NCBI GenBank assembly: GCA_963752285.1
Contig: CAVVXN010000001.1
Location: 672,001 to 736,000 of the forward strand
Source: an uncultured Planctomycetota bacterium
GTDB lineage: Bacteria; Planctomycetota; PLA2; JAEUHO01
Reading direction: 5' to 3'
Length of the DNA: 64,000 nt
Shown here: positions 43,344-56,871 of the stretch, one piece after another
Layout: each line of letters begins with the position of its first letter
How positions within the stretch are numbered: position 1 is the stretch's first letter
Program-made: the position numbers and the translations under genes
The notes under the pieces: generated by a model
What the model was told of the DNA's origin: nothing
The model's database searches: none
The model's input: only the letters and a program-made list of their open reading frames with translations

Positions 43344-43617
43344 TCGACGCGCGGCGCGCGGGGGAGGGGCCGCGACCGACCCCTGCCCACGCCCCACGCC
43401 CACGCCCCACGCCCCACGCCCCACGCGCACGGGAACGAGCCCGAGCGCGCGACCCGAAGCGCGGGCGTGGGGCGTCGAGGGGGTCTTCGGCCCTCGCTCC
43501 CCTCTCCCGAGCGCGCCGGCCCTCGGCCCGCGAGAGCGCGCTCCCTCTGGCGCTCGTGACGGAGGCGGGCGTGGGTAGACTCCGGTGCGGGCGCTCGGGG
43601 CCGGACGGAGGCGCGCC

Positions 43618-44517
43618 ATGCGGGTACCGGGACGCGGGATCGTCGGGACCGCTCTCTTCCTCGGGGCCCTCGCGGCCGGGGCGCTGGCGAAGGACGCCCG
43701 GCCGAGCGCTCGCGACGGCTTCACGAGCCTCGTCGCCATCGTGACGCCCAGCGGCGAGGCGGCCCACCCGGAAGCGTGGCCGGAGGCTCTCGTCTCGCAC
43801 CGCGACTGGCGCGGCGCGCCCGAGCAGGTCCAGGCCTGGCGTCGTGAGGGCGTGGCGCGGCTCGCCGCGGCCGAGGTGCTGAAGGTCCGCGAGGACCACG
43901 ACGACGCGTACGTGCGGGTCCGGCTCGCCGACGGCGAGGCCGAGGTGCCGCTCCGGTGGACCGCGGGGCGCTGGGCGCTCGGCGCGCCACGCGAGTGGCT
44001 CGTCCGGGGCGCGGCGCTGGACGCCGCGAATGGCGAGGCCGCGGCGACGATCCGCCTCGCGGCGTTCACCGACCCGGACTCCTACGGCCCGAGCGCGTTC
44101 TCCTTCACCTACGTCACGCAGGACCCGAAGGCGTGCCTGAATCGGATGGACGTCTGGTACTGCCGGAACGGGGACCTCCACCGCGCGGGAGACGGCGGGT
44201 TCCAGGACCTCGGTCGTGGGCGTCTCGAGAAGGCGGGCACGATCGGGCTCGGCGGTCCGTGGACGGACACGGTTCGGCCCCGCAAGGGCGGTCTGTACGT
44301 GCTGCACGTGCGTCGGCCGGGGCGCACCGACTTCTTCGTACGGCTTCGCGCGACGGCGGTGAGCCGGGAGGAGGTGAGCCTCGAGTGGAGTCTCCTCTCG
44401 CTGGGCGACGGGGCTCCGGCGTCCATCCACGAGGCGCAGCCGTGGCACGCGACGGACCCGAACGTCGGCGAGCCCGGCGCGGACGGCGCGCCGGGTCTCT
44501 GCGGAACGGGCGGGTAG
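43618..44517 (+). CDS. Hypothetical exported protein
   Basis: GGAGG RBS; signal peptide ...LGALAAGALA; GC3-biased codons. Confidence 0.72.
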   Translation: MRVPGRGIVGTALFLGALAAGALAKDARPSARDGFTSLVAIVTPSGEAAHPEAWPEALVSHRDWRGAPEQVQAWRREGVARLAAAEVLKVREDHDDAYVRVRLADGEAEVPLRWTAGRWALGAPREWLVRGAALDAANGEAAATIRLAAFTDPDSYGPSAFSFTYVTQDPKACLNRMDVWYCRNGDLHRAGDGGFQDLGRGRLEKAGTIGLGGPWTDTVRPRKGGLYVLHVRRPGRTDFFVRLRATAVSREEVSLEWSLLSLGDGAPASIHEAQPWHATDPNVGEPGADGAPGLCGTGG

Positions 44518-44743: not shown

Positions 44744-45259
44744 TCAGTTCCCGAAGACGTCGTCCAGGGTCTCGGCCGAGCCCTTCTCGAACTCGCCGGC
44801 GTCGAGCGTGAGGCGCGAGGTGGGTCGCCCCGTCTCCTTCTTGCGGAAGATGTCGCCGAGGCGCTTCGCCGACTCCGCGGCGTAGAGACGCACCATGCCG
44901 ATGGTCGTCGTGTCCTCGAAGAGCGCCGTCAGCAGCGCGCGATCGCCCACCAGGGAGAGCTGGATGTTCCCGCTCCGTCCCTGGTGGAAGAGCGCGGTGA
45001 AGTCCTGCTCGCCGAACTGCTTCGCGAGGGCCTTCGTGGCCGCGAACGAGCCGGCCACGAGCGCGCTGATCGTGTCGAGGTCCACGCCTTTCGTCGCGCC
45101 ACGCGCCGTGATCATGTGACCGTCCTGATCGACGAGCAGGGCGCACTTCGCCGCGCTCTTCTTCAGGAAGGCGTCCATGATGGCCTCGATGGCCGAGATG
45201 TCCTCCTCGTAGAACACGAGGGCCTGCTGGCGGAGGTCCTGGTCACGGATGCTGCTCAT
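44744..45259 (-). CDS. mglB: Roadblock/LC7 protein, MglB-like GAP
   Basis: LVFYEED, ALLVDQDG, SALVAGSFAAT.ALAK..GE..F..LFHQG, T.IGMVRL, C-terminal LDDVFG helix as in myxobacterial MglB. Confidence 0.9.
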   Translation of the reverse strand: MSSIRDQDLRQQALVFYEEDISAIEAIMDAFLKKSAAKCALLVDQDGHMITARGATKGVDLDTISALVAGSFAATKALAKQFGEQDFTALFHQGRSGNIQLSLVGDRALLTALFEDTTTIGMVRLYAAESAKRLGDIFRKKETGRPTSRLTLDAGEFEKGSAETLDDVFGN

Positions 45260-45286
45260 GGCGTTCTTCCTGCTCGGTTCTTGCGG

Positions 45287-46312
45287 TCAGACGTGCGACA
45301 CGACGAAGTAGATGGCCCCCGCGATCAATCCGGCGAGGGCGAGGAAGAGGGGGATCTTCGCGCCCATCCGCGGCCGGTTGAGGCCGCGCATGCTCACCAC
45401 GCGGTCCTGCATCGAAGCGTGGGGCGCCTCGACGCGGGCGGACGGGGCGGGCGACGACGGGCGTAGCCGGCTCTTCGGGGCGGGCGACGACGGCTGCGGG
45501 CGCGCGGGCTCGTCCTCGACGGCCGTGGCCGCGCCGGCGGTGTGCCGCGCGGGCGCGGCCGCGGCGGCCGCGATGGCGGGCGTCGCGGGGCGAGCGGCGG
45601 GTGAACCGGTCGGTGCGGAGACGACGGGGGTCGCGGACGCGGGCTTCCGAACGGGCGGCGGCGCGGTGTGCGTGGGGCCGACGGGCGCGGGACGGGCCGC
45701 GGCCGGCCGCGGGCGCGGCGCGGCGAGACCGCCCTTGTTCACGCTCTCGAGGACGCGTCCGGCGAGGTCCTTGAGCGTCGGGAAGACGCCCTCTCCGCGC
45801 GGCGCGATGGCCTCGTGGAACGGGAAGCCCCAGGTGTTGATCTCGCGCTGGAGGTCCTCGATCGCCATCGCGTCGGGGAGGTCCCGCTTGTTGTACTGGA
45901 TCACGATCGGGACGTCGGAGAGGGACTTCCCCATCTCCTTCAGGTTCTCCTCGAGGTCCGAGAACGACTCCTTGTTCTCGCGGAGCTTCGCGGTGCTCGA
46001 GTCGGCGACGAACACGATGCCGTCCACGCCCTGGAGAACGAGACGACGCGTCGACTTGTAGTAGATCTGGCCGGGAACCGTGTAGAGCTGGAACTTCGTC
46101 TTGATGCCCGCGATCTGACCCAGGTCGAGGGGCATGTAGTCGAAGTAGAGGGTGCGCTCGCCGGTCGTCGCGATCGAAGTCAGCTCACCACGAGACTCGG
46201 CAGGCACCTTGCCGTGCACGAGCTCCAAGTTCGTCGTCTTCCCGGACATTCCCGGCCCGTAGTAGACGATCTTGCACTGGATCTCCTTCTGCGCGAAGTT
46301 GATCTGGACCAT
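45287..46312 (-). CDS. mglA: MglA-family small GTPase with Pro/Ala linker and C-terminal TM anchor
   Basis: KIVYYGPGMSGKTTN (G1), ERTLYFD (G2, Arg finger), YTVPGQ (G3), NKRDL (G4), AIAPRGEGV (G5); tail IPLFLALAGLIAGAIYFVV. Confidence 0.93.
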   Translation of the reverse strand: MVQINFAQKEIQCKIVYYGPGMSGKTTNLELVHGKVPAESRGELTSIATTGERTLYFDYMPLDLGQIAGIKTKFQLYTVPGQIYYKSTRRLVLQGVDGIVFVADSSTAKLRENKESFSDLEENLKEMGKSLSDVPIVIQYNKRDLPDAMAIEDLQREINTWGFPFHEAIAPRGEGVFPTLKDLAGRVLESVNKGGLAAPRPRPAAARPAPVGPTHTAPPPVRKPASATPVVSAPTGSPAARPATPAIAAAAAAPARHTAGAATAVEDEPARPQPSSPAPKSRLRPSSPAPSARVEAPHASMQDRVVSMRGLNRPRMGAKIPLFLALAGLIAGAIYFVVSHV

Positions 46313-46416: not shown

Positions 46417-46770
46417 TCAAGCGACGAGCTCCGCCTCCCGCTCCACGCGGTGTGCGGCGCTTCGGATCTCGATGCTTCCGGGACCGATCTCCAGGCGGGC
46501 ACCGAGCAATACGAGGAGGTAGGCGGGGCCGGCCTCGACGAGGATGACCTTGCCCTGCTCCGCGGCGACCTCGACCTGGTTGAACGCGTCGAGGCCCGCG
46601 TCGCGGAGGCTCTTGCCGATCTCGCGTACGATCGCGGCCCCCAGGGCGGAGAGTCGCTCGACGTCCACGCCTTCCCGGACCGCGCTCGCGATGAGCAGGC
46701 CGTCCTTCGACAGGACGACGCTGCCGCGGCCCGAGATCGTGCCGTTCAGCTCGGCGAGGATCTCCTTCAT
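46417..46770 (-). CDS. Roadblock/LC7 protein (MglC-like)
   Basis: GSVVLSKDGLLIAS...LSALGA...EQGKVIL; 117 aa; ATG overlaps the upstream TGA. Confidence 0.88.
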   Translation of the reverse strand: MKEILAELNGTISGRGSVVLSKDGLLIASAVREGVDVERLSALGAAIVREIGKSLRDAGLDAFNQVEVAAEQGKVILVEAGPAYLLVLLGARLEIGPGSIEIRSAAHRVEREAELVA

Positions 46771-47873
46771 CGCTTCCCTCCGAGGCTGCCTTCGAGGTGG
46801 ACCGAGACGCGCTCCCACAGCCGCTGGGGCTCGGGGTTCTGGTTCCAGCGCGCGCCGGTCACGACGCCGCCCACCTCCCCGACGGCGACGATCCCGAACG
46901 GTCCCTGGATCGTGCAGCGGCGGAACGCGCCGAGGTCGAACTCGCGGGCGTAGCGCGCGACCATGCGCGCCACCGTCCGCGTGACGTCCACGAGGCCCTT
47001 GTCGCTGCCCTCCGCGCGGGGGTTGACCGATTCGCCGTCGGGCGTCCCGCGCACGTGCGCGATGAGGGTGCCGCCACGCTGCAGCATCACGATCTCTGCG
47101 GCGGAGCCGGCCTCCACCAGCGCCCGTGCCGCCCGTTCCGCCCGGTCCTCGTCGAGACGGCTCACGCGGCTTCGGCGGCTCCGCAGGGGCCAGGTCGTCG
47201 GCTCGCGCACGAGCGCGCCTTCGACCTCGATGCGCTCGAACAGCCCGTCGTGCGACGTGGGCGCCTCGCCGGACGCGATGCCCTTCAGCTTCTCGAGCAC
47301 GGGCTCGAGGAGCGGATCGCCCTCGGCGATCGCCTCGAGGTCACGGACGACGGCCGCGAGCGCGCGGTCCGCGCCGGTGCAGTAGTACAGCTCGGCGAGG
47401 AGGAGGCGCGGCTTCACGGCCTCGGTGTTCAGGGCGGCGGCGCGGAGGAGCCGGCGCTCGGCGCCGTGCGCGTCGTTCGCCCTCAGGTCCTCGAAGAACG
47501 CCTGCAGGCTCATCTCGCCGAGCAGGAGGTGCGCCGCATCGCGGTCGGGATGGGCGTTGGCGTAGGCGAGCGCCTCGTGCCGGGCCTCGGCGAAGAGACC
47601 GAGCTCGAGGTAGAGCGAGATGAGCTGCTCGTAGGCGCGCGCGTCCTCGTTCCGCTCGATGCGCGCCTTGAGGCTCTGGATGCCCGTGCGGGCCTGGGCC
47701 CGCCGAATCGTGAGCTCGAGGTCGTGGAGCGGGTCCGCGTCCGGGTAGAGCTCGAGGCCCCGCTGCACGATCTTGCGGGCCTGATCGAAGTCCTCCGCCG
47801 CGAGGCGGCGCTGCGCCTGCTGGATCAGCTTGTCCAGCGAGGCCCTCGAGAACAGGTCTCCAATCCGTCCCAC
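46767..47873 (-). CDS. TPR-repeat protein with C-terminal roadblock-like domain
   Basis: TPR-like helices (GLELYPD, AYEQLISLY, AHLLLGE, PRLLLAELY); C-terminal EFDLGAFRRCTIQGPFGIVAV resembles the roadblock beta-sheet. Confidence 0.75.
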   Translation of the reverse strand: MGRIGDLFSRASLDKLIQQAQRRLAAEDFDQARKIVQRGLELYPDADPLHDLELTIRRAQARTGIQSLKARIERNEDARAYEQLISLYLELGLFAEARHEALAYANAHPDRDAAHLLLGEMSLQAFFEDLRANDAHGAERRLLRAAALNTEAVKPRLLLAELYYCTGADRALAAVVRDLEAIAEGDPLLEPVLEKLKGIASGEAPTSHDGLFERIEVEGALVREPTTWPLRSRRSRVSRLDEDRAERAARALVEAGSAAEIVMLQRGGTLIAHVRGTPDGESVNPRAEGSDKGLVDVTRTVARMVARYAREFDLGAFRRCTIQGPFGIVAVGEVGGVVTGARWNQNPEPQRLWERVSVHLEGSLGGKR

Positions 47874-48271
47874 CGGGTATCTCCGCGGGCCTCGGCCACG
47901 GGGGCCGGGGCCAGGGGGCCTATCGACCAGCGGGCCGGCCCGGATGAAGCGCGGAGGCCGGAGTCCGCCTCGCGAGGCCCGGGCGGGACCGAGGCGCCCC
48001 CCCCGCGCGCGGTCCCCGCCCGCACGGCCCTCAGGACCCACGAGCGGCGCGACGTGTTCTTGACCCGCGCCGGTGCAAGGCCGACTTCCGATCGCTCGAC
48101 GATCGCGCCCTCGTCTACCGGGCGTCCTTCGCGCACCGGGGCCCCGAGGACCCGGCGGGCGGAGGAAGCGACCCGGAAGCGGGTCACCGACGACGAATCA
48201 CGAGCCGATCGGGGCCCGGCGTGCCGAGGGCGGCGCGGCCCACGAAGCCCACGAAGCCCACGAAGCACGCG

Positions 48272-51200
48272 CTAACGCGCGACCGCGACGAGGTGCCCCT
48301 GGGCGAACACGTACACGGAGCCGCCCAGGGGGAGGAGGGGGCTCGTGGCCGAGGCGCCGTCGATCCCGGTCTCCGAGAGCGGGCAGCGCCAGGCCGTCAC
48401 GTCGGGGGCGGCGAGGTCCACGGCGCGGAGCACGGCGTCCCGGTCGAGGGCGTACACCTGGTCGCCCTGGCCCGCGACGGTCGTCGCCCCGTTCCCGAGC
48501 CCGGCGAGGCGCACGGTCTTGGCGTCCCGGGCCATCCAGTGGACGCCGTCGCTCTCGATCCAGGCGACGCCCGTCGGCGAGACGTAGGCGTTCGCGGAGA
48601 GCGGCGCGGCGTGTCCCGCGGGCACGAGCGTTCCCTCGGCGGTCAGCACGCGGGCCTCGGCGTTCGCGCCGCCCAGGAGCACGGCGCCGTCGCCGAGGGG
48701 CAGAGCGAGCAGGAGGCCGCGCGCCGACGAGGCGAGTTGCTTGACCTCGCCGGTGCTCGCCTGGAAGAGGTACGCGTCCCCGCGCACGGTCGTCAAGAGG
48801 AAGCCTCGCTTGCTCCCGTACGGATGCTGCGCAGGCGCGCCGCCGATGGACTTGTGCCACGCCGACTTGCCCGTCGCGAGGTCGTAGCCGTACACGTTGC
48901 CGCGTTCGTCCACGACCACCACGACGCCCTCGAGGAGCGCGGGCTCGTGCTCGATCTGACCGAGCGCCTGCACCTCCCAGGGCTCGCCTTCGAGCGGCCG
49001 CACGATGAGCGTGCGCTGGCCCACGATGCGCCACTCGACGCCGCCGGCGAGCGTGCCCCCCGAACGGACCGGCTCGTGGCGCTTGAAGTCCTTCGGGGCC
49101 TCCAGGGAGCCGTCGTCGGGCGCCACGGGCTGGAGCGCCTTGCCGTCTTCGGTGAGCAGCACCGGGATGTCGTTCGAGGCCCACAGCGCGCGGTACGGGC
49201 CGCGCAGCGGCGTGACGGCCCAGCGCGGGCCCTCCGGCAGGGACTCGTGGCGGAGCGGCGACCAGCGCGCGGCCGCCGTGGCGTCCGAAGCGATGGCGTC
49301 GAAGTCGGGCAGCGTCACGTGCTCCGGCACGTGCCCGGGGAGCCGCAGCGACAGCTCGGTCGGGCCGAACGGCGAGTACTCGAAGGTGCACGGGGTCGTG
49401 AGCCCGGTCGGCTCGTCGCCGAGCCACACCGCGGCCGCCGCGGGCTCGGTCTCGACGTGGACGGGCAGGCGCACCTCACGTGTCAGGTCGCTGTCGAGCT
49501 GGTGCGCGAACAGCGCCACGCCGAGCTGGAAGGCCTTCACGACGTCGTCCGAGGCGCGGGCCGCGTCGATCTGCTTCCGGGTCTCCTCGAATTCCGCCGT
49601 GTACCGGTGGACGTGCTCCAGGAGCAGGTCGGCGCGCGCCGCGAGGGCCTCGTCCGTCATCGCGAGGTTGCGGGCGAGGCGCAGGCTCTTGTCGGCCTCG
49701 CGGAACCGTCCAGCCGCGTGCGATGCCTCGCCCTTGGTGAGCGCGACCTTCGCTTCGGTCTGCGCGTTCGTGACCGCCTCGTTCGCCTGCGTCCGGAGCG
49801 CCTCGAGGCGCGCGCGCAGGTGGTTCAGCACGGCGAGGGTGCTCTCGCGATGGTCGGTCGCCTGGTACTGCTCGATCTCGGTCGCCAGGCCGAGCACGAC
49901 GCCGTTGGCCGACTCGACCTCGTGGTCCACGGCGCGCGTCATGTCGATGGCGGCCTTGCCGAGGCCCTCGTCGGGCGCGTCGGCGTTGCGTGCCTTCGCG
50001 AGACGTCGCACGAACTCCTGGACCAGCGTCACGGTCTGCTGCTCCGCCTGGTCCACGGCGTGCTCCGCGCGCGCCTGGACCTGGTGGATGGACCGTCCCG
50101 CTTCCTGGTTGTACGTCCACCACGCCCCCGCCAGCCCGAGCAGGACGAGGCCGAGGACGACGACCGCGACGGCGAGCCGCTTCTTCTGCCGGTGCTTGCG
50201 CTGCTCGCCCTCGATCAGGTGCAGACGCCCCCGCGCGTCCGCGCGGGTCGGGTCGAGCTGCAGCGTGCGACGGAGCAGGTCCCGCGCCGGCGACGTCCGA
50301 CCTTGCGCGAGCAGGTCCTCGGCCCGGCGGAAGAGCGCGACGGCGGCCTCCGCGCGGTCTCCGCCCGAGGCGTAGAGGTCGGCGAGGACGAGGAGGTCCT
50401 CGCTCGGCGCGTCGCCGGTCTGCACGAAGGCCCGCAGCCGTTCCGCGGCCTCGAGGGGCTGCCGCGCCGTCACGGCGGCGTGGATCAGCGTGCGGAGCGC
50501 CTCGAGCGCCTGGCCCTGCCGGTCGGTGAGCCACGGCCGGTTCTTCACGTAGTAGTCGGTGAGGCGGGCGGCCGAGCCCATCTCGCCCTTTCGCAGGTCC
50601 ATCGCGCGGCGGAGCGCGTCGAACACCCCGATCGGCTTCACGTCCTCGGCCTTCAGGGCGTACGTCTCGAGCTGGAGCGCCGCCTCCTCACGCCGGCCGG
50701 CCGCCTCGAGCGCGTCGGCGTAGCGGATCCACGCCTCCGGCGGCGCGTCGCCGCGGTCGATGGCGCGTCGGAGGAGCGGCAGGGCGCGGAGCGACTCGCC
50801 CCGCGAGAGGAGGTCCTCGCCCCGCGTCAGGAGGTCCTCGGTCGCGACCGGACGGACGCCGCCGCCGTGGAGCAGCGCGGCGACGACCTGGATCACCGTG
50901 AGGTCGTCCACGTCGCTCGCCTCGACGACCTGCTCGAGCGTGCGATAGCCGTCGATCGAGTGGACGACGGGGTCGGCGAGAGCGGGATCGACCTCCTCGG
51001 CCTCGAGCGCGCCCGCGACGTCCACGCCGATGCCGGTGCCCTCGTACACCTCCTCGGTGCTGGGCACGACCTGCGAGAGCTCGGCCCACTGGTCCATCTT
51101 GCGCGTCAGCTCGAGCAGGAGGGCCTCGACGACGATCCCCGGCTCGATCGGACGCCGGGGCCGACCGTCCGGCCACTTGTCGGTGCCGTCGGGCGCGAGG

Positions 51201-51598
51201 ATCTGGCCGTCCGCGAACTCGAAGCGGTTGATCGCGCGGAGCTGGAGCCTGAGGAAGCGCTCGTGGACCGAGTGCTCGACCGCCTCCTCCAGGACCGGCT
51301 CCTCGAGGACGCCGAGGTCGAGGAGGATCCGGCCGAGGTACTCCCCCGACGCGGCCTGGATCCCCTGCGCCCGCTCGAGACGGTCCTCCGCCACGAGGCC
51401 GCGCCGGCGGACCACCCGGAGCAGCGCCCGGCTGGCTCCGGCGTCACCCTCCACGAACGCCGCCCGACCCCGATCCACGTGGATCGTCCGGGCTCCGCGA
51501 TCGGTCTCCAGTACCAGCGTCCCGACCTTCTGGTTGAAGGCGAGCATCTGGAGGAGCTCCCGGAGGTTGAAGGTCTCCAGAGTCCCCTTGATCGTCAC
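48272..51598 (-). CDS. Large bitopic protein: DUF4388 - TPRs - TM - coiled coil - PEGA - PQQ-type beta-propeller
   Basis: IKGTLETFNLRELLQMLAFNQKVGTL (DUF4388); TM LAVAVVVLGLVLLGLAGAWW; VETEPAAAAVWLGD...TTPC (PEGA); GNVYGYDLATGKSAW (PQQ repeat); GAGGA RBS. Confidence 0.85.
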   Translation of the reverse strand: MTIKGTLETFNLRELLQMLAFNQKVGTLVLETDRGARTIHVDRGRAAFVEGDAGASRALLRVVRRRGLVAEDRLERAQGIQAASGEYLGRILLDLGVLEEPVLEEAVEHSVHERFLRLQLRAINRFEFADGQILAPDGTDKWPDGRPRRPIEPGIVVEALLLELTRKMDQWAELSQVVPSTEEVYEGTGIGVDVAGALEAEEVDPALADPVVHSIDGYRTLEQVVEASDVDDLTVIQVVAALLHGGGVRPVATEDLLTRGEDLLSRGESLRALPLLRRAIDRGDAPPEAWIRYADALEAAGRREEAALQLETYALKAEDVKPIGVFDALRRAMDLRKGEMGSAARLTDYYVKNRPWLTDRQGQALEALRTLIHAAVTARQPLEAAERLRAFVQTGDAPSEDLLVLADLYASGGDRAEAAVALFRRAEDLLAQGRTSPARDLLRRTLQLDPTRADARGRLHLIEGEQRKHRQKKRLAVAVVVLGLVLLGLAGAWWTYNQEAGRSIHQVQARAEHAVDQAEQQTVTLVQEFVRRLAKARNADAPDEGLGKAAIDMTRAVDHEVESANGVVLGLATEIEQYQATDHRESTLAVLNHLRARLEALRTQANEAVTNAQTEAKVALTKGEASHAAGRFREADKSLRLARNLAMTDEALAARADLLLEHVHRYTAEFEETRKQIDAARASDDVVKAFQLGVALFAHQLDSDLTREVRLPVHVETEPAAAAVWLGDEPTGLTTPCTFEYSPFGPTELSLRLPGHVPEHVTLPDFDAIASDATAAARWSPLRHESLPEGPRWAVTPLRGPYRALWASNDIPVLLTEDGKALQPVAPDDGSLEAPKDFKRHEPVRSGGTLAGGVEWRIVGQRTLIVRPLEGEPWEVQALGQIEHEPALLEGVVVVVDERGNVYGYDLATGKSAWHKSIGGAPAQHPYGSKRGFLLTTVRGDAYLFQASTGEVKQLASSARGLLLALPLGDGAVLLGGANAEARVLTAEGTLVPAGHAAPLSANAYVSPTGVAWIESDGVHWMARDAKTVRLAGLGNGATTVAGQGDQVYALDRDAVLRAVDLAAPDVTAWRCPLSETGIDGASATSPLLPLGGSVYVFAQGHLVAVAR

Positions 51599-51791
51599 GT
51601 AAACGTCCTCTCGGATCGCATTGCGACCCGATGCCGCCAGCCGTAGACTGGCCTCTCGGGTCCGGTCGGCCCTCCTATCGGCGCGAGTCGGACCTGCGCC
51701 TGAGCCCTTGCGCCGCCGGGGCCCCTGCCCGGCCAACGAGAGACCCCGACATCCCCGTGGCCGCGTGGCGGGGGGGACGAGACCGACCCGG

Positions 51792-52331
51792 ATGAAACGG
51801 CGGACGGGACCCATCGCCGCGACGCTTCGCTGGCTCCGGGCCTTGCTGTTCACGGCCAAGGCCCGGCTCCTGCTCCTCCGCGGGGACCGGCCGCGCGCCA
51901 TCGCCGCCCTGGAGGCGGCCGTGGCCACCCGGCCGTGGGCCTTCCGTCCCCTCCTTCGGTTGGCGAGGGCCTATCTCCTGACCCGGGACACCTGGCGGGC
52001 CCACCGGACCCTGGCGCAGGCCCGCGAGGCGCACCCCGAGAGGTTCGCCCGCGTGGTCCCGGGCTGGCTCCGCCGCCAGGACCTCGACCTCGACGTCCTC
52101 GGCCAGGTGCTCGCCCCCGGCGTGCTCCGCCCGGGCTCGGGGGGACGGGTGCCCGCCACGGCGCCGACGCGGTCGCTCTCCGGGCGGCCCGTGCGCCCCG
52201 GGAGCCTGCCCTGGGGGGACTGCACGAGTCTCGACGAGTACACGCGCTTCCGGGCCATGCCCCCGATCACGGCCGCCGAGCGGGCCTCGATCGACTGGGA
52301 CGCGCTCCTCGACGACCTCCTCGACGACTGA
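51792..52331 (+). CDS. Hypothetical TPR-containing protein with acidic C-terminal motif
   Basis: AIAALEAAVATRPWAFRPLLRLARAY TPR-like; C-terminal PWGDCTSLDEYTRFRAMPPIT...IDWDALLDDL. Confidence 0.65.
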   Translation: MKRRTGPIAATLRWLRALLFTAKARLLLLRGDRPRAIAALEAAVATRPWAFRPLLRLARAYLLTRDTWRAHRTLAQAREAHPERFARVVPGWLRRQDLDLDVLGQVLAPGVLRPGSGGRVPATAPTRSLSGRPVRPGSLPWGDCTSLDEYTRFRAMPPITAAERASIDWDALLDDLLDD

Positions 52332-56620: not shown

Positions 56621-56697
56621 TGGTGGGCGAAGAGGGACTCGAACCCCCGGCCTCCTCGGTGTAAGCGAGGCGCTCTAGCCGACTGAGCTATTCGCCC
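56621..56697 (-). tRNA. tRNA-Val (TAC)
   Basis: Reverse complement GGGCGAATAGCTCAGTCGGCTAGAGCGCCTCGCTTACACCGAGGAGGCCGGGGGTTCGAGTCCCTCTTCGCCCACCA; cloverleaf with encoded CCA. Confidence 0.97.
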
Positions 56698-56796: not shown

Positions 56797-56871
56797 TGGT
56801 AGCGGGGGCGGGAGTCGAACCCGCGACCTCCAGGTTATGAGCCTGACGAGATACCACTTCTCCACCCCGCG
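56797..56871 (-). tRNA. Initiator tRNA-fMet (CAT)
   Basis: Reverse complement CGCGGGGTGGAGAAGTGGTATCTCGTCAGGCTCATAACCTGGAGGTCGCGGGTTCGACTCCCGCCCCCGCTACCA; C1:A72 mismatch typical of initiators. Confidence 0.95.

Follow-up and report, generated by a model that had tools for sequence, protein, structure and literature searches.

The 64,000-nucleotide stretch of DNA analysed here (the window), from an uncultured Planctomycetota bacterium, carries on its minus strand a gene for a GTPase of the MglA family whose G domain is followed by a tail of 146 amino acids ending in a predicted transmembrane (TM) helix. The product is very probably a genuine, conserved, membrane-tethered MglA with its G domain in the cytoplasm. 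Comparison with homologous sequences indicates that this tailed design is the standard MglA of the Planctomycetota genomes sampled and not one odd gene. No description of an anchored planctomycete MglA of this design was found in the literature, subscription-only papers being outside the scope of the search.

The G domain and its C-terminal tail

The protein sequence quoted in the earlier note is the translation of the open reading frame at 45287..46312, which was divided as follows.

45287..46312, minus strand: predicted tail-anchored MglA, whole gene, 341 aa (ORF list; ATG start, stop codon 45287-45289)
45728..46312, minus strand: G domain, residues 1-195, group-1 MglA core (PDB matches, invariant columns, AF2 fold)
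45416..45727, minus strand: disordered linker rich in Ala, Pro, Ser and Arg, residues 196-299 (composition, GC3 0.935, pLDDT 44-52)
45380..45415, minus strand: juxtamembrane motif, residues 300-311, SMQDRVVSMRGL (alignment A1, C-termini of homologues)
45356..45379, minus strand: basic spacer NRPRMGAK, residues 312-319 (sequence; predicted cytoplasmic side of the helix)
45299..45355, minus strand: predicted TM helix, residues 320-338 (Kyte-Doolittle, AF2, homologues)

Residues 2-192 match the MglA of T. thermophilus (PDB 3t12_A, E-value 1.4e-68) and residues 3-195 that of M. xanthus (5ymx_A, E-value 1.1e-67); after the MglA chains the runners-up in the PDB are Arf proteins, at E-values of 5e-05 or weaker. 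The G1-G5 motifs are complete and align with those of solved MglA, comprising the P-loop GPGMSGKT (19-26), T54, the G3 motif T78 V79 P80 G81 Q82 (TVPGQ, 78-82, in place of DxxGQ) and NKRD (141-144). R53-T54, within ERTLYFD, aligns with the RT of the Thermus and Myxococcus proteins, placing an intrinsic Arg finger beside the G2 threonine. All motif positions are invariant in alignments A1 (27 homologues) and A2 (85 homologues). According to the accessible text of the 2014 survey by Wuichet and Sogaard-Andersen (PMC4316618), an Arg finger adjoining the G2 threonine is one mark of group-1 MglA. The same text states that any sequence above 240 aa was left out, so that tailed forms fell outside the survey. 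At 341 aa the present protein lies beyond its range of 150-240 aa, which is a size filter and not a phylogenetic criterion, and in a tree of G domains it groups with other MglA. The intact core of about 195 aa recognised in the earlier note is thus borne out by PDB matches of E 1e-68 and 1e-67 and by the presence of every motif it named, and we infer from the sequence a functional group-1 MglA, predicted to bind and hydrolyse GTP.

The tail contains 36 Ala, 27 Pro, 14 Arg, 12 Ser and 11 Val residues. In an AF2 model built from 85 sequences the core is folded, residues from about 200 to 310 have pLDDT values of 44-52, and a helix at 320-340 reaches about 94. The disordered stretch between core and helix occupies residues 196-319; composition and predicted disorder both agree with the low-complexity Pro/Ala/Ser/Arg linker of about 125 aa that had been proposed. 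Its juxtamembrane motif has the consensus R-x-[ML]-[QE]-D-R-V-V-x-V-x-G-L in the family to which the window's protein belongs.

The top 19-residue Kyte-Doolittle window is 320-338 (IPLFLALAGLIAGAIYFVV; mean 2.43), after which only S-H-V remains. Kyte-Doolittle analysis of the whole 341-aa protein found no N-terminal or other hydrophobic segment or signal peptide, since the eight best windows all fall within residues 316-341. The protein therefore has a single hydrophobic helix, which lies no more than about 30 residues from its C-terminus, and lacks a signal peptide and further TM segments, the arrangement of a tail-anchored protein, and the TM tail anchor claimed in the earlier note is predicted both by hydropathy (2.43 at 320-338) and by the AF2 helix at 320-340. 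Four basic residues (R309, R313, R315 and K319) lie within the 11 residues ahead of the helix and none lies past it, a distribution that fits an N-terminus inside under the positive-inside rule. Membrane insertion and topology are thus predicted from hydropathy, charge distribution and the AF2 helix, and the permanence of the tether proposed in the earlier note is likewise a prediction from sequence. A CAAX or CC prenylation motif is absent; the protein ends in ...YFVVSHV and its sole cysteine, C13, is in the G domain.

A hydrophobic helix at the C-terminus with basic residues close by has a superficial likeness to C-terminal sorting domains, and the helix could in principle be a sorting or export signal (PEP-CTERM or similar) that displays the GTPase outside the cytoplasm. 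We consider this scarcely credible. The basic residues precede the helix and none follows it, an N-terminal signal peptide and other hydrophobic segments are absent, and an NCBIfam search of the MglA protein returned no sorting-domain model. Moreover, a GTPase requires cytoplasmic GTP, and no hydrophobic segment was found in MglB, the product of the adjoining gene.

Conservation and origin of the tail

The best 120 database homologues were examined for their C-termini. Of these, 115 (294-418 aa) finish in a hydrophobic helix that stops 0-9 residues short of the C-terminus, and five are fragments of 192-265 aa. Planctomycetota loci gave 91 complete MglA ORFs that are distinct from one another, 23 ORFs cut by contig ends and two masked ones having been set aside. 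Of the 91, 83 have a TM end (82 with tail and TM, one with a weaker Gly/Ala-rich TM), six end in a basic amphipathic segment and two (L144 and L147) carry long tails in which no anchor could be recognised; anchoring is not universal because of these last two. No short tail-less MglA occurred among the 91. All 42 non-planctomycete relatives, which are those among the best 80 of 597 relatives, are 191-204 aa in length. Relatives are often mislabelled, in some sources as "signal recognition particle receptor subunit beta", and tailed MglA genes are frequently cut short, the linker being a place where assemblies break. Across a sample of the phylum, 168 of 301 genomes had MglA and 165 had Robl_LC7, the tallies agreeing in 27 of the 30 families itemised, and the module is missing from about half of the Planctomycetota genomes sampled.

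A tree of the G domain only (FastTree, SH-like support, rooted by assuming that the short forms are the outgroup) contains a branch marked 99* that divides the 91 tailed rows from the 42 short ones. The six amphipathic ends, for example ...KGFLGRLFRIFKK (L174) and ...KPLFKKFKKFLDEK (L063), have helical hydrophobic moments of 0.51-0.86, compared with linker maxima of 0.32-0.48, and net charges of +2 to +5. These forms are nested among TM forms and require three changes, at least two of them forced by starred branches. Identity of the window's protein to its relatives is 64-92% in the core, 26-39% in the linker and 17-59% over the last 41 residues, from which it appears that length, composition and a hydrophobic end are conserved in the tail instead of sequence. 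Since the TM helix has been exchanged at least twice for an amphipathic helix within the clade, membrane attachment, and not a particular sequence, would be under selection, and this is the pattern expected in that case. The replacement provides strong indirect support, from sequence, for membrane tethering as put forward in the earlier note.

The tail might also be meaningless, a read-through product arising from the loss of a stop codon, from a frameshift or from faulty assembly, in a genome so rich in GC that long open frames turn up by chance. At 74% GC, the window has 33 ORFs of at least 60 aa in 6 kb and long ORFs in every frame. Assemblies often break in the linker, and eight of 20 fetched regions ended at a contig end just past the G domain. 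The earlier note suggested that reads around 45730 be checked for a lost stop. Public contigs, small ones assembled by Logan from soil and wetland metagenomes, were used for this; the best-matching data set had 0.24 of the words, and no RNA data set was listed. The contigs of one run (X2) matched the helix-coding stretch and the stop codon exactly (45234-45412), and those of a second study (X4) carried the conservative variant A325V. The core/linker junction, 45662-45809, was without contig cover, so that reads could not test for a lost stop there, and the conservation of homologues answered the question instead: close and distant MglA homologues share the tail, which was another check that had been called for. 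The same architecture is present in 89 of the 91 complete distinct homologues (31 family codes) and in 115 of the 120 database matches. GC3 is frame-specific, at 0.93-0.96 in core, linker and helix alike in the MglA frame, and independent contigs reproduce the helix-coding end and the stop codon exactly. The ORF at 45287..46312 is also the sole MglA-like match in the genome to which the window belongs (4.64 Mb, 89% complete), in which no second, tail-less MglA was found. By comparison of sequences the tail is not the result of a lost stop codon; read-through is already contradicted by these data, and the chance that it accounts for the tail is minute.

The gene cluster and candidate partners

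MglA is the fourth gene of a conserved order of five, PATAN-TPR-TM-propeller, TPR-Roadblock, Roadblock, MglA and MglB, which recurs across loci including Brocadiia-labelled ones. Its neighbours in the window are as follows.

44744..45259, minus strand: MglB, 171 aa, Roadblock fold, putative GAP (Pfam Robl_LC7 E 2.7e-12; PDB MglB chains E 4e-25)
46417..46818, minus strand: small Roadblock/LC7 protein, 133 aa as listed (Pfam Robl_LC7 E 4.6e-10)
46767..48041, minus strand: TPR protein whose C-terminal domain is a divergent Roadblock-like one, 424 aa as listed (weak TPR matches, profile-profile comparison)
48272..51928, minus strand: PATAN(DUF4388)-TPR-TM-beta-propeller protein, 1218 aa as listed (Pfam DUF4388 E 2.5e-16, TPR, PQQ_2)

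MglB begins 27 nt past the MglA stop and matches the NCBIfam MglB model with an E-value of 1e-27 and 97 bits, which is under the 200-bit equivalog cut-off. Of 68 loci, counted without de-duplication, 53 have it downstream of MglA and 43, by tblastn, have the small Roadblock gene upstream. The small Roadblock protein probably starts at the ATG at 46770, giving 117 aa and an ATGA overlap with the upstream stop. MglB and this gene, the genome's only two with Robl_LC7 matches, flank MglA. The start of the TPR-Roadblock protein is uncertain, conservation beginning near residue 57. Its C-terminal part was related to the small Roadblock protein by profile-profile comparison (94.6% probability, E-value 7e-08); BLASTP between the two was marginal (E-value 0.005) and Pfam gave no match for the C-terminal 150 aa. 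The probable start of the PATAN protein is a GTG at residue 111 (51598). One hydrophobic segment is present in it, at 582-606, after RKHRQKKR, and of the 38 loci that were fetched together with at most 6 kb of flank on each side, 18 have its gene upstream.

The spacing of the genes, with the ATGA overlap, gaps of 27 nt and 104 nt and no terminator-like site on the minus strand, fits a single operon. A promoter and terminator scan of the cluster detected nothing promoter-like and a single terminator-like site, which was on the wrong strand; shuffles had more. A complex prediction for the TPR-Roadblock protein, the Roadblock protein and MglA residues 1-319 gave a score of 0.00 and a mark of 0.32 and favours neither side. 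A link to type IV pili was sought by gene neighbourhood, and no general adjacency of PilT emerged. A search by tblastn with the genome's own PilT revealed a PilT-like gene in the fetched flank of one of 20 Planctomycetota loci of at least 9 kb (L062) and of one Gemmatimonadota locus; the genome itself has three PilT-family genes, all away from the MglA cluster.

The composition of the cluster and the structure of the tail bear on two further roles for the C-terminus, which we judge improbable even when taken together. The tail may anchor the protein only until cleavage, or until regulated release or masking at the juxtamembrane motif; were the motif a protease site, a signal would free a soluble, Myxococcus-like MglA. 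Such a role would suit a short motif that is kept within families, 8-20 residues ahead of the helix, next to a linker that is not, and that is not docked on the core in the AF2 model (pLDDT < 50). The motif differs between families, however, being DRVVxVxGL (f1), GKVKIKER (f2) or RTIQIR (f53), and there is no protease gene within the conserved cluster. Alternatively, the helix may serve chiefly to pair with itself or with the PATAN-TPR protein, which also has a single TM segment; helix 320-338 carries a small-residue face, G328-x-x-x-G332. The replacement of TM by amphipathic ends nevertheless argues for generic membrane binding and not for a specific contact between TM helices, and a lasting membrane tether is the reading preferred here.

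Proposed mechanism and relation to known systems

In the proposed mechanism, the C-terminus of MglA itself would hold the protein to the cytoplasmic membrane, as a tail anchor with the N-terminus inside, helix 320-338 being inserted in the inner membrane and the G domain exposed to the cytoplasm. MglB is the GAP of MglA in Thermus and Myxococcus, and by analogy the MglB encoded next to the tailed protein would switch it off. In cycling between its GTP-bound and GDP-bound states MglA would not leave the plane of the membrane, so that spatial control would be exerted by lateral capture or local activation and not by exchange between cytosol and pole. The linker would act as a leash whose reach, estimated from general polymer scaling, is typically about 10 nm and at full stretch about 45 nm, and a partner probably docks at the conserved juxtamembrane motif. 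Regulators or effectors are most likely to be found among the co-conserved TPR-Roadblock, Roadblock and PATAN-TPR-TM-propeller proteins, the last of which could couple a periplasmic input to the MglA switch. The output may be the placement of type IV pili or of another polar or envelope machine; a role of the module in pili or polarity is put forward tentatively and is somewhat more probably wrong than right.

A broader and rather unlikely proposal is that the Planctomycetota MglA is a membrane-resident small-GTPase system with a layout like that of eukaryotic Ras, Rab and Rag, evolved independently. Here the G domain would sit on a hypervariable leash with TM and amphipathic anchors interchangeable in evolution, the three Roadblock-fold proteins would serve as GAP and as GEF or platform, and the juxtamembrane motif would be the docking peptide for one partner from the cluster. 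The periplasmic propeller of the PATAN-TPR protein would pass envelope signals to the switch, and sites on the membrane would be marked by the system for an envelope process typical of the phylum, for example the placing of pili, the identity of a bud site or pole, or invagination of the membrane.

Several characterised systems share parts of this design. With M. xanthus and T. thermophilus MglA, as portrayed in the available part of PMC4316618, the window's protein has in common a full-length alignment of the G domain, the Arg finger, TVPGQ and an adjoining MglB gene. Those proteins are soluble and single-domain, of about 195 aa, and exchange between cytosol and pole, whereas the present one has a further 146 residues with a predicted membrane helix.

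Eukaryotic Ras and Rab proteins possess a hypervariable C-terminal region and a lipid anchor, and Miro GTPases are tail-anchored. In all of these, as is predicted for the planctomycete MglA, a conserved G domain leads into a flexible spacer that evolves fast, and the chain terminates in a membrane anchor, so that the switch works on a membrane surface. Where Ras and Rab carry a prenyl group, the predicted anchor of the planctomycete protein is a TM helix, replaced in some relatives by an amphipathic one, and the C-terminus has no cysteine; its linker is several times longer, its G domain is of the MglA type and no GDI-like extraction system is evident. The likeness is an analogy and not family membership, and the loose comparison with anchored eukaryotic small GTPases drawn in the earlier note stands in that sense, the layout being the same and the prenylation motif absent.

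MinD and FtsA have C-terminal amphipathic membrane-targeting helices. The six planctomycete MglA relatives with short basic amphipathic ends and high hydrophobic moments resemble them; the window's MglA differs in having a full predicted TM helix, which should bind irreversibly, while amphipathic helices bind reversibly.

In the Streptomyces conservon CvnA-D, which contains a group-2 MglA, an MglA-family GTPase and a Roadblock protein likewise belong to a membrane-associated complex, as far as the accessible text of PMC4316618 describes it. There a separate protein, a TM histidine kinase, provides the link to the membrane, and the GTPase, according to the same portion of that source (PMC4316618), lacks the Arg finger and has GTPGQ; the window's GTPase carries its own predicted anchor and the membrane partner would be the PATAN-TPR protein. 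Ragulator-Rag also brings several Roadblock-fold proteins and a small GTPase together at a membrane, in the part of PMC10933270 that was available. In that complex the scaffold is anchored and the GTPases bear Roadblock domains of their own, whereas here the GTPase itself would be anchored, and the likeness is one of shared folds. PATAN proteins near MglA and MglB genes are mentioned, with reference to earlier work, in the available text of bioRxiv 10.1101/2021.06.11.447907, and in the window too the neighbours of MglA and MglB include a gene for a DUF4388/PATAN protein. Most of the PATAN proteins described in that text are response regulators and bind PilB1, the motor of the pilus. The protein in the window differs in its size of about 1100-1200 aa, its TPRs, its TM helix and its predicted periplasmic propeller.

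MglA is the textbook bacterial Ras-like GTPase, and its mechanism is understood as that of a soluble protein hopping between poles. A phylum-wide version built into the membrane implies another spatial logic, that of two-dimensional diffusion and capture, or of local activation, and the tailed MglA would offer an experiment of nature on how tethering affects a polarity circuit of GTPase and GAP. It would also be a clear prokaryotic case of a G domain, a variable spacer and a terminal membrane anchor, a layout for which eukaryotes use lipid anchors and which would here have arisen in bacteria known for their unusual membrane organisation.

The MglA gene and its C-terminal tail

An open reading frame of 341 codons with an ATG start (ORF listing) occupies 45287..46312 on the minus strand. 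A search of PDB chains matched its product to the MglA proteins of Thermus thermophilus (3t12_A; residues 2–192, E 1.4e-68) and Myxococcus xanthus (5ymx_A; residues 3–195, E 1.1e-67); next in rank come Arf chains, with E-values no better than 5e-05. Pfam returned generic Arf and Ras models only. AlphaFold2 (85 sequences) gave a folded G domain, and the four motifs listed below are invariant in homologue alignments of 27 and 85 sequences.

Group-1 MglA motifs of the protein
Residues 19–26: P-loop, GPGMSGKT
R53-T54: intrinsic arginine adjoining the G2 threonine
Residues 78–82: TVPGQ
Residues 141–144: NKRD

The sequence criteria that were applied all place the protein in group-1 MglA; at 341 aa it falls outside only the operational 150–240 aa size range of a 2014 survey of prokaryotic small GTPases (PMC4316618), whose available text does not mention Planctomycetes and uses "transmembrane" only for a conservon kinase. 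No second MglA-like gene was found in this genome (4.64 Mb, 89% complete). Many homologues, database rows P0012 and P0013 among them, carry the automatic label "signal recognition particle receptor subunit beta" in one source; the match to solved MglA structures marks them as MglA-type.

The 146-residue tail that follows the G domain contains 36 Ala, 27 Pro, 14 Arg and 12 Ser. The most hydrophobic 19-residue window of the protein is 320–338 (mean 2.43), all eight top windows lie within 316–341, and S-H-V alone follows the predicted helix. In the AlphaFold2 model pLDDT is 44–52 over residues ~200–310 and ~94 over a helix at 320–340. The architecture proposed in the earlier note, an MglA core, a low-complexity linker and a C-terminal hydrophobic helix, is thus borne out by PDB matches, hydropathy and structure prediction. 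Four basic residues lie ahead of the helix and there are none behind it, which fits a cytoplasmic N-terminus. That the helix serves as an export signal is highly improbable, as the charges are distributed in this way and the protein has no signal peptide.

Against ten relatives, identity is 64–92% in the core, 26–39% in the linker and 17–59% in the last 41 residues; the tail preserves its length, its composition and a terminus that is either hydrophobic or amphipathic. The family to which the protein belongs also carries the motif R-x-[ML]-[QE]-D-R-V-V-x-V-x-G-L, 8–20 residues ahead of the helix (here S300-MQDRVVSMRGL-311). Differing short strand-like motifs occupy the same position in other families, GKVKIKER in f2 and RTIQIR in f53. 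The juxtamembrane motif, undocked on the G domain in the model (pLDDT <50), is a putative short linear motif for a partner.

Since the window has 74% GC and abundant chance ORFs (33 of at least 60 aa within 6 kb), read-through was a fair worry, and the earlier note had raised a lost stop codon near 45730. GC3 in the MglA frame is 0.93–0.96 through core, linker and helix, the values for positions 1 and 2 being 0.35–0.80. Among the top 120 hits in a large protein collection, 115 (294–418 aa) place a hydrophobic helix 0–9 residues from the C-terminus and the other five are fragments of 192–265 aa. As the gene is the sole MglA-like one in its genome, it has no tail-less companion there. In two studies, public contigs run over the part of the gene that encodes the helix, stop codon included, and not over the core/linker junction (45662–45809): one is identical over 45234–45412, and that of the other study has G>A at 45339, a conservative A325V change within the helix. 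These observations argue against a lost stop codon. An artefactual read-through as the source of the tail is contradicted by conservation of the tail among homologues and can be given almost no weight; the tailed MglA gene is real.

The MglA gene cluster

MglA lies in a cluster with four other genes, all on the minus strand.

Genes clustered with MglA
48272–51928, minus: PATAN-TPR-TM-propeller protein, 1218 aa as listed; DUF4388/PATAN (E 2.5e-16), TPRs, PQQ-like beta-propeller
Minus: TPR protein, 424 aa; profile-profile match of its C-terminal region to the small Roadblock protein (94.6%, E 7e-08)
Minus: small Roadblock/LC7 protein (Pfam); probable ATG overlaps the upstream stop as ATGA, 46767–46770
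27 nt downstream of MglA, minus: MglB; Robl_LC7 E 2.7e-12, PDB MglB E 4e-25

The NCBIfam MglB model matches the downstream gene at E 1e-27, below its equivalog cut-off. The ATGA overlap of the TPR-Roadblock stop and the Roadblock start suggests that the two genes are translationally coupled and that the Roadblock product has 117 aa, not 133. The PATAN protein possesses one hydrophobic segment (582–606) preceded by RKHRQKKR, from which PATAN and TPR are predicted to be cytoplasmic and the propeller periplasmic. Its probable start is a GTG at residue 111, just ahead of the PATAN domain; homologues align only from about residue 80–111. Away from MglA, the genome carries another PATAN ORF of comparable length (1220-aa open frame, G000:C5:970546-971016).

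By tblastn the same five-gene order recurs in related loci, as far as Brocadiia-labelled ones. In counts that were not de-duplicated, 53 of 68 loci have MglB downstream of MglA and 43 of 68 have the small Roadblock gene upstream; the PATAN protein turns up in 18 of the 38 loci whose fetched flanks reached up to 6 kb per side. The genome has only two Robl_LC7 genes, both flanking MglA. Housekeeping genes surround the cluster (isocitrate dehydrogenase, a Cys/Met PLP enzyme, MutS and urocanase). The interval from the isocitrate dehydrogenase gene to MglB contains a 310-aa ORF (43585–44517, plus strand) with coding-like GC3 (0.92), without a Pfam match or a tblastn match at E 1e-5 in related loci. 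Two tRNA genes (56624–56697 and 56800–56871, minus strand) are the window's only Rfam matches at gathering score.

Distribution of the tailed form and exchange of its anchor

Loci were drawn from 41 related genomes (match in 36), a search across species-representative genomes (the 80 best of 597 confirmed relatives), an even phylum sample of 301 genomes at least 85% complete, and 40 more regions picked to include additional family codes and every short open frame. In the phylum sample MglA was matched at E 1e-40 or better in 168 genomes and Robl_LC7 in 165; the two tallies agree in 27 of 30 itemised families, and all MglA-less families also lack Roadblock genes. Removal of identical ORFs left 116 Planctomycetota sequences.

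Forms of MglA among the 116 Planctomycetota sequences
Long tail with terminal helix, hydropathy at least 1.9: 82 (297–516 aa in total, median 353.5)
Weaker Gly/Ala-rich helix: 1 (locus L064)
Short basic amphipathic terminal segment: 6 (loci L062, L063, L137, L165, L172, L174)
Long tail, no recognisable anchor: 2 (loci L144, L147)
Cut by contig end: 23
Masked: 2
Short tail-less form: 0

The 42 non-planctomycete sequences among the best 80 of the 597 relatives all measure 191–204 aa; their record titles place them in Myxococcota, Gemmatimonadota, Acidobacteriota, Thermodesulfobacteriota, Deinococcota, Bdellovibrionota and others. Each "short" frame of the phylum sample that was followed up proved to be a contig stopping inside the linker, and 8 of 20 fetched regions (L157–L160, L162–L164, L168) end at a contig end 100–250 nt past the G domain. 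Assemblies thus often break in the Ala/Pro-rich linker, and tailed MglA is under-called in MAGs, where truncated genes can pass for short forms. As judged from these sequences, the tailed protein is the standard form among sampled Planctomycetota genomes that have the switch at all.

The tails of L144 (391 aa) and L147 (421 aa) end in charged, repeat-like sequence and are unexplained exceptions. Among the same-order genomes G025–G035, those of sister family f2 have a second MglA paralogue, 43–50% identical over residues 1–250 to 1–280, in open frames of 364–581 aa, and more distant MglA-like domains occur across f2 and the window's own family, f1, in open frames of 370–1900 aa.

For the six amphipathic ends, the helical hydrophobic moment is 0.51–0.86 (linker maxima 0.32–0.48) and the net charge +2 to +5. 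We take them to resemble the reversible membrane-targeting helices of MinD-type proteins.

Amphipathic C-termini
L174: ...KGFLGRLFRIFKK
L172: ...SKGFVGFLKGLFGK
L063: ...KPLFKKFKKFLDEK
L165: ...KPIFKKFEKKFKK

A FastTree tree was built on the first 192 residues only, with 91 tailed planctomycete rows and 42 short rows, which a branch of 99% local support splits from each other. Amphipathic forms are nested among transmembrane ones through three changes, at least two of them forced by well-supported branches. Four of the six fall in one clade: two come from Brocadiia-labelled loci, the others from two closed genomes of 9.3–9.5 Mb. The tree is thus compatible with a single origin of the tail, and the nesting indicates that anchor type has been exchanged in evolution, which is evidence for membrane attachment as the property under selection. 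The earlier suggestion of a membrane-tethered MglA gains support from the predicted helix, its conservation and this exchange. Regulated release, with the motif as a cleavage or masking site, or a helix that mainly pairs with another transmembrane segment, is unlikely in view of the switch from transmembrane to amphipathic anchors and of a cluster without a protease.

Possible output and mode of action

Lipid-anchored eukaryotic Ras and Rab proteins, of the kind to which the earlier note drew a loose likeness, also combine a G domain, a variable spacer and a terminal anchor; unlike them, this protein lacks a C-terminal cysteine and its G domain is of MglA type, and it is not a member of that family. 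Literature searches, run mostly on abstracts and listings of papers available without subscription, found no description of a membrane-anchored MglA; the form is apparently undescribed in the searchable literature.

According to the available text of one preprint, PATAN proteins occur near MglA/MglB genes, and PATAN response regulators of Synechocystis bind the pilus motor PilB1 (bioRxiv 10.1101/2021.06.11.447907); that of a paper on MglA and type IV pili has M. xanthus PATAN proteins among the candidates considered (PMC11580455). Three PilT-family genes in this genome pass the curated cut-off, but of 20 planctomycete loci of at least 9 kb only 1 has a pilus ATPase gene close to the cluster. 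A pilus or polarity output is a reasonable but tentative guess, not a finding.

In the Ras fold the C-terminus exits the domain opposite the switch regions, so that a C-terminal tether should leave GAP and effector binding free. By analogy with known MglA/MglB pairs (structures and PMC4316618), the G domain would bind GTP, MglB would stimulate hydrolysis and the GTP form would engage effectors. The tail anchor would confine the switch to the plane of the membrane, the leash of ~125 residues giving the G domain an estimated range of ~10 nm, and a maximum of ~45 nm, from the membrane by general polymer scaling. A switch so confined would then be controlled in space by being captured laterally or activated locally, and the most plausible agents of this are the Roadblock/TPR proteins and the PATAN-TPR membrane protein encoded with it.
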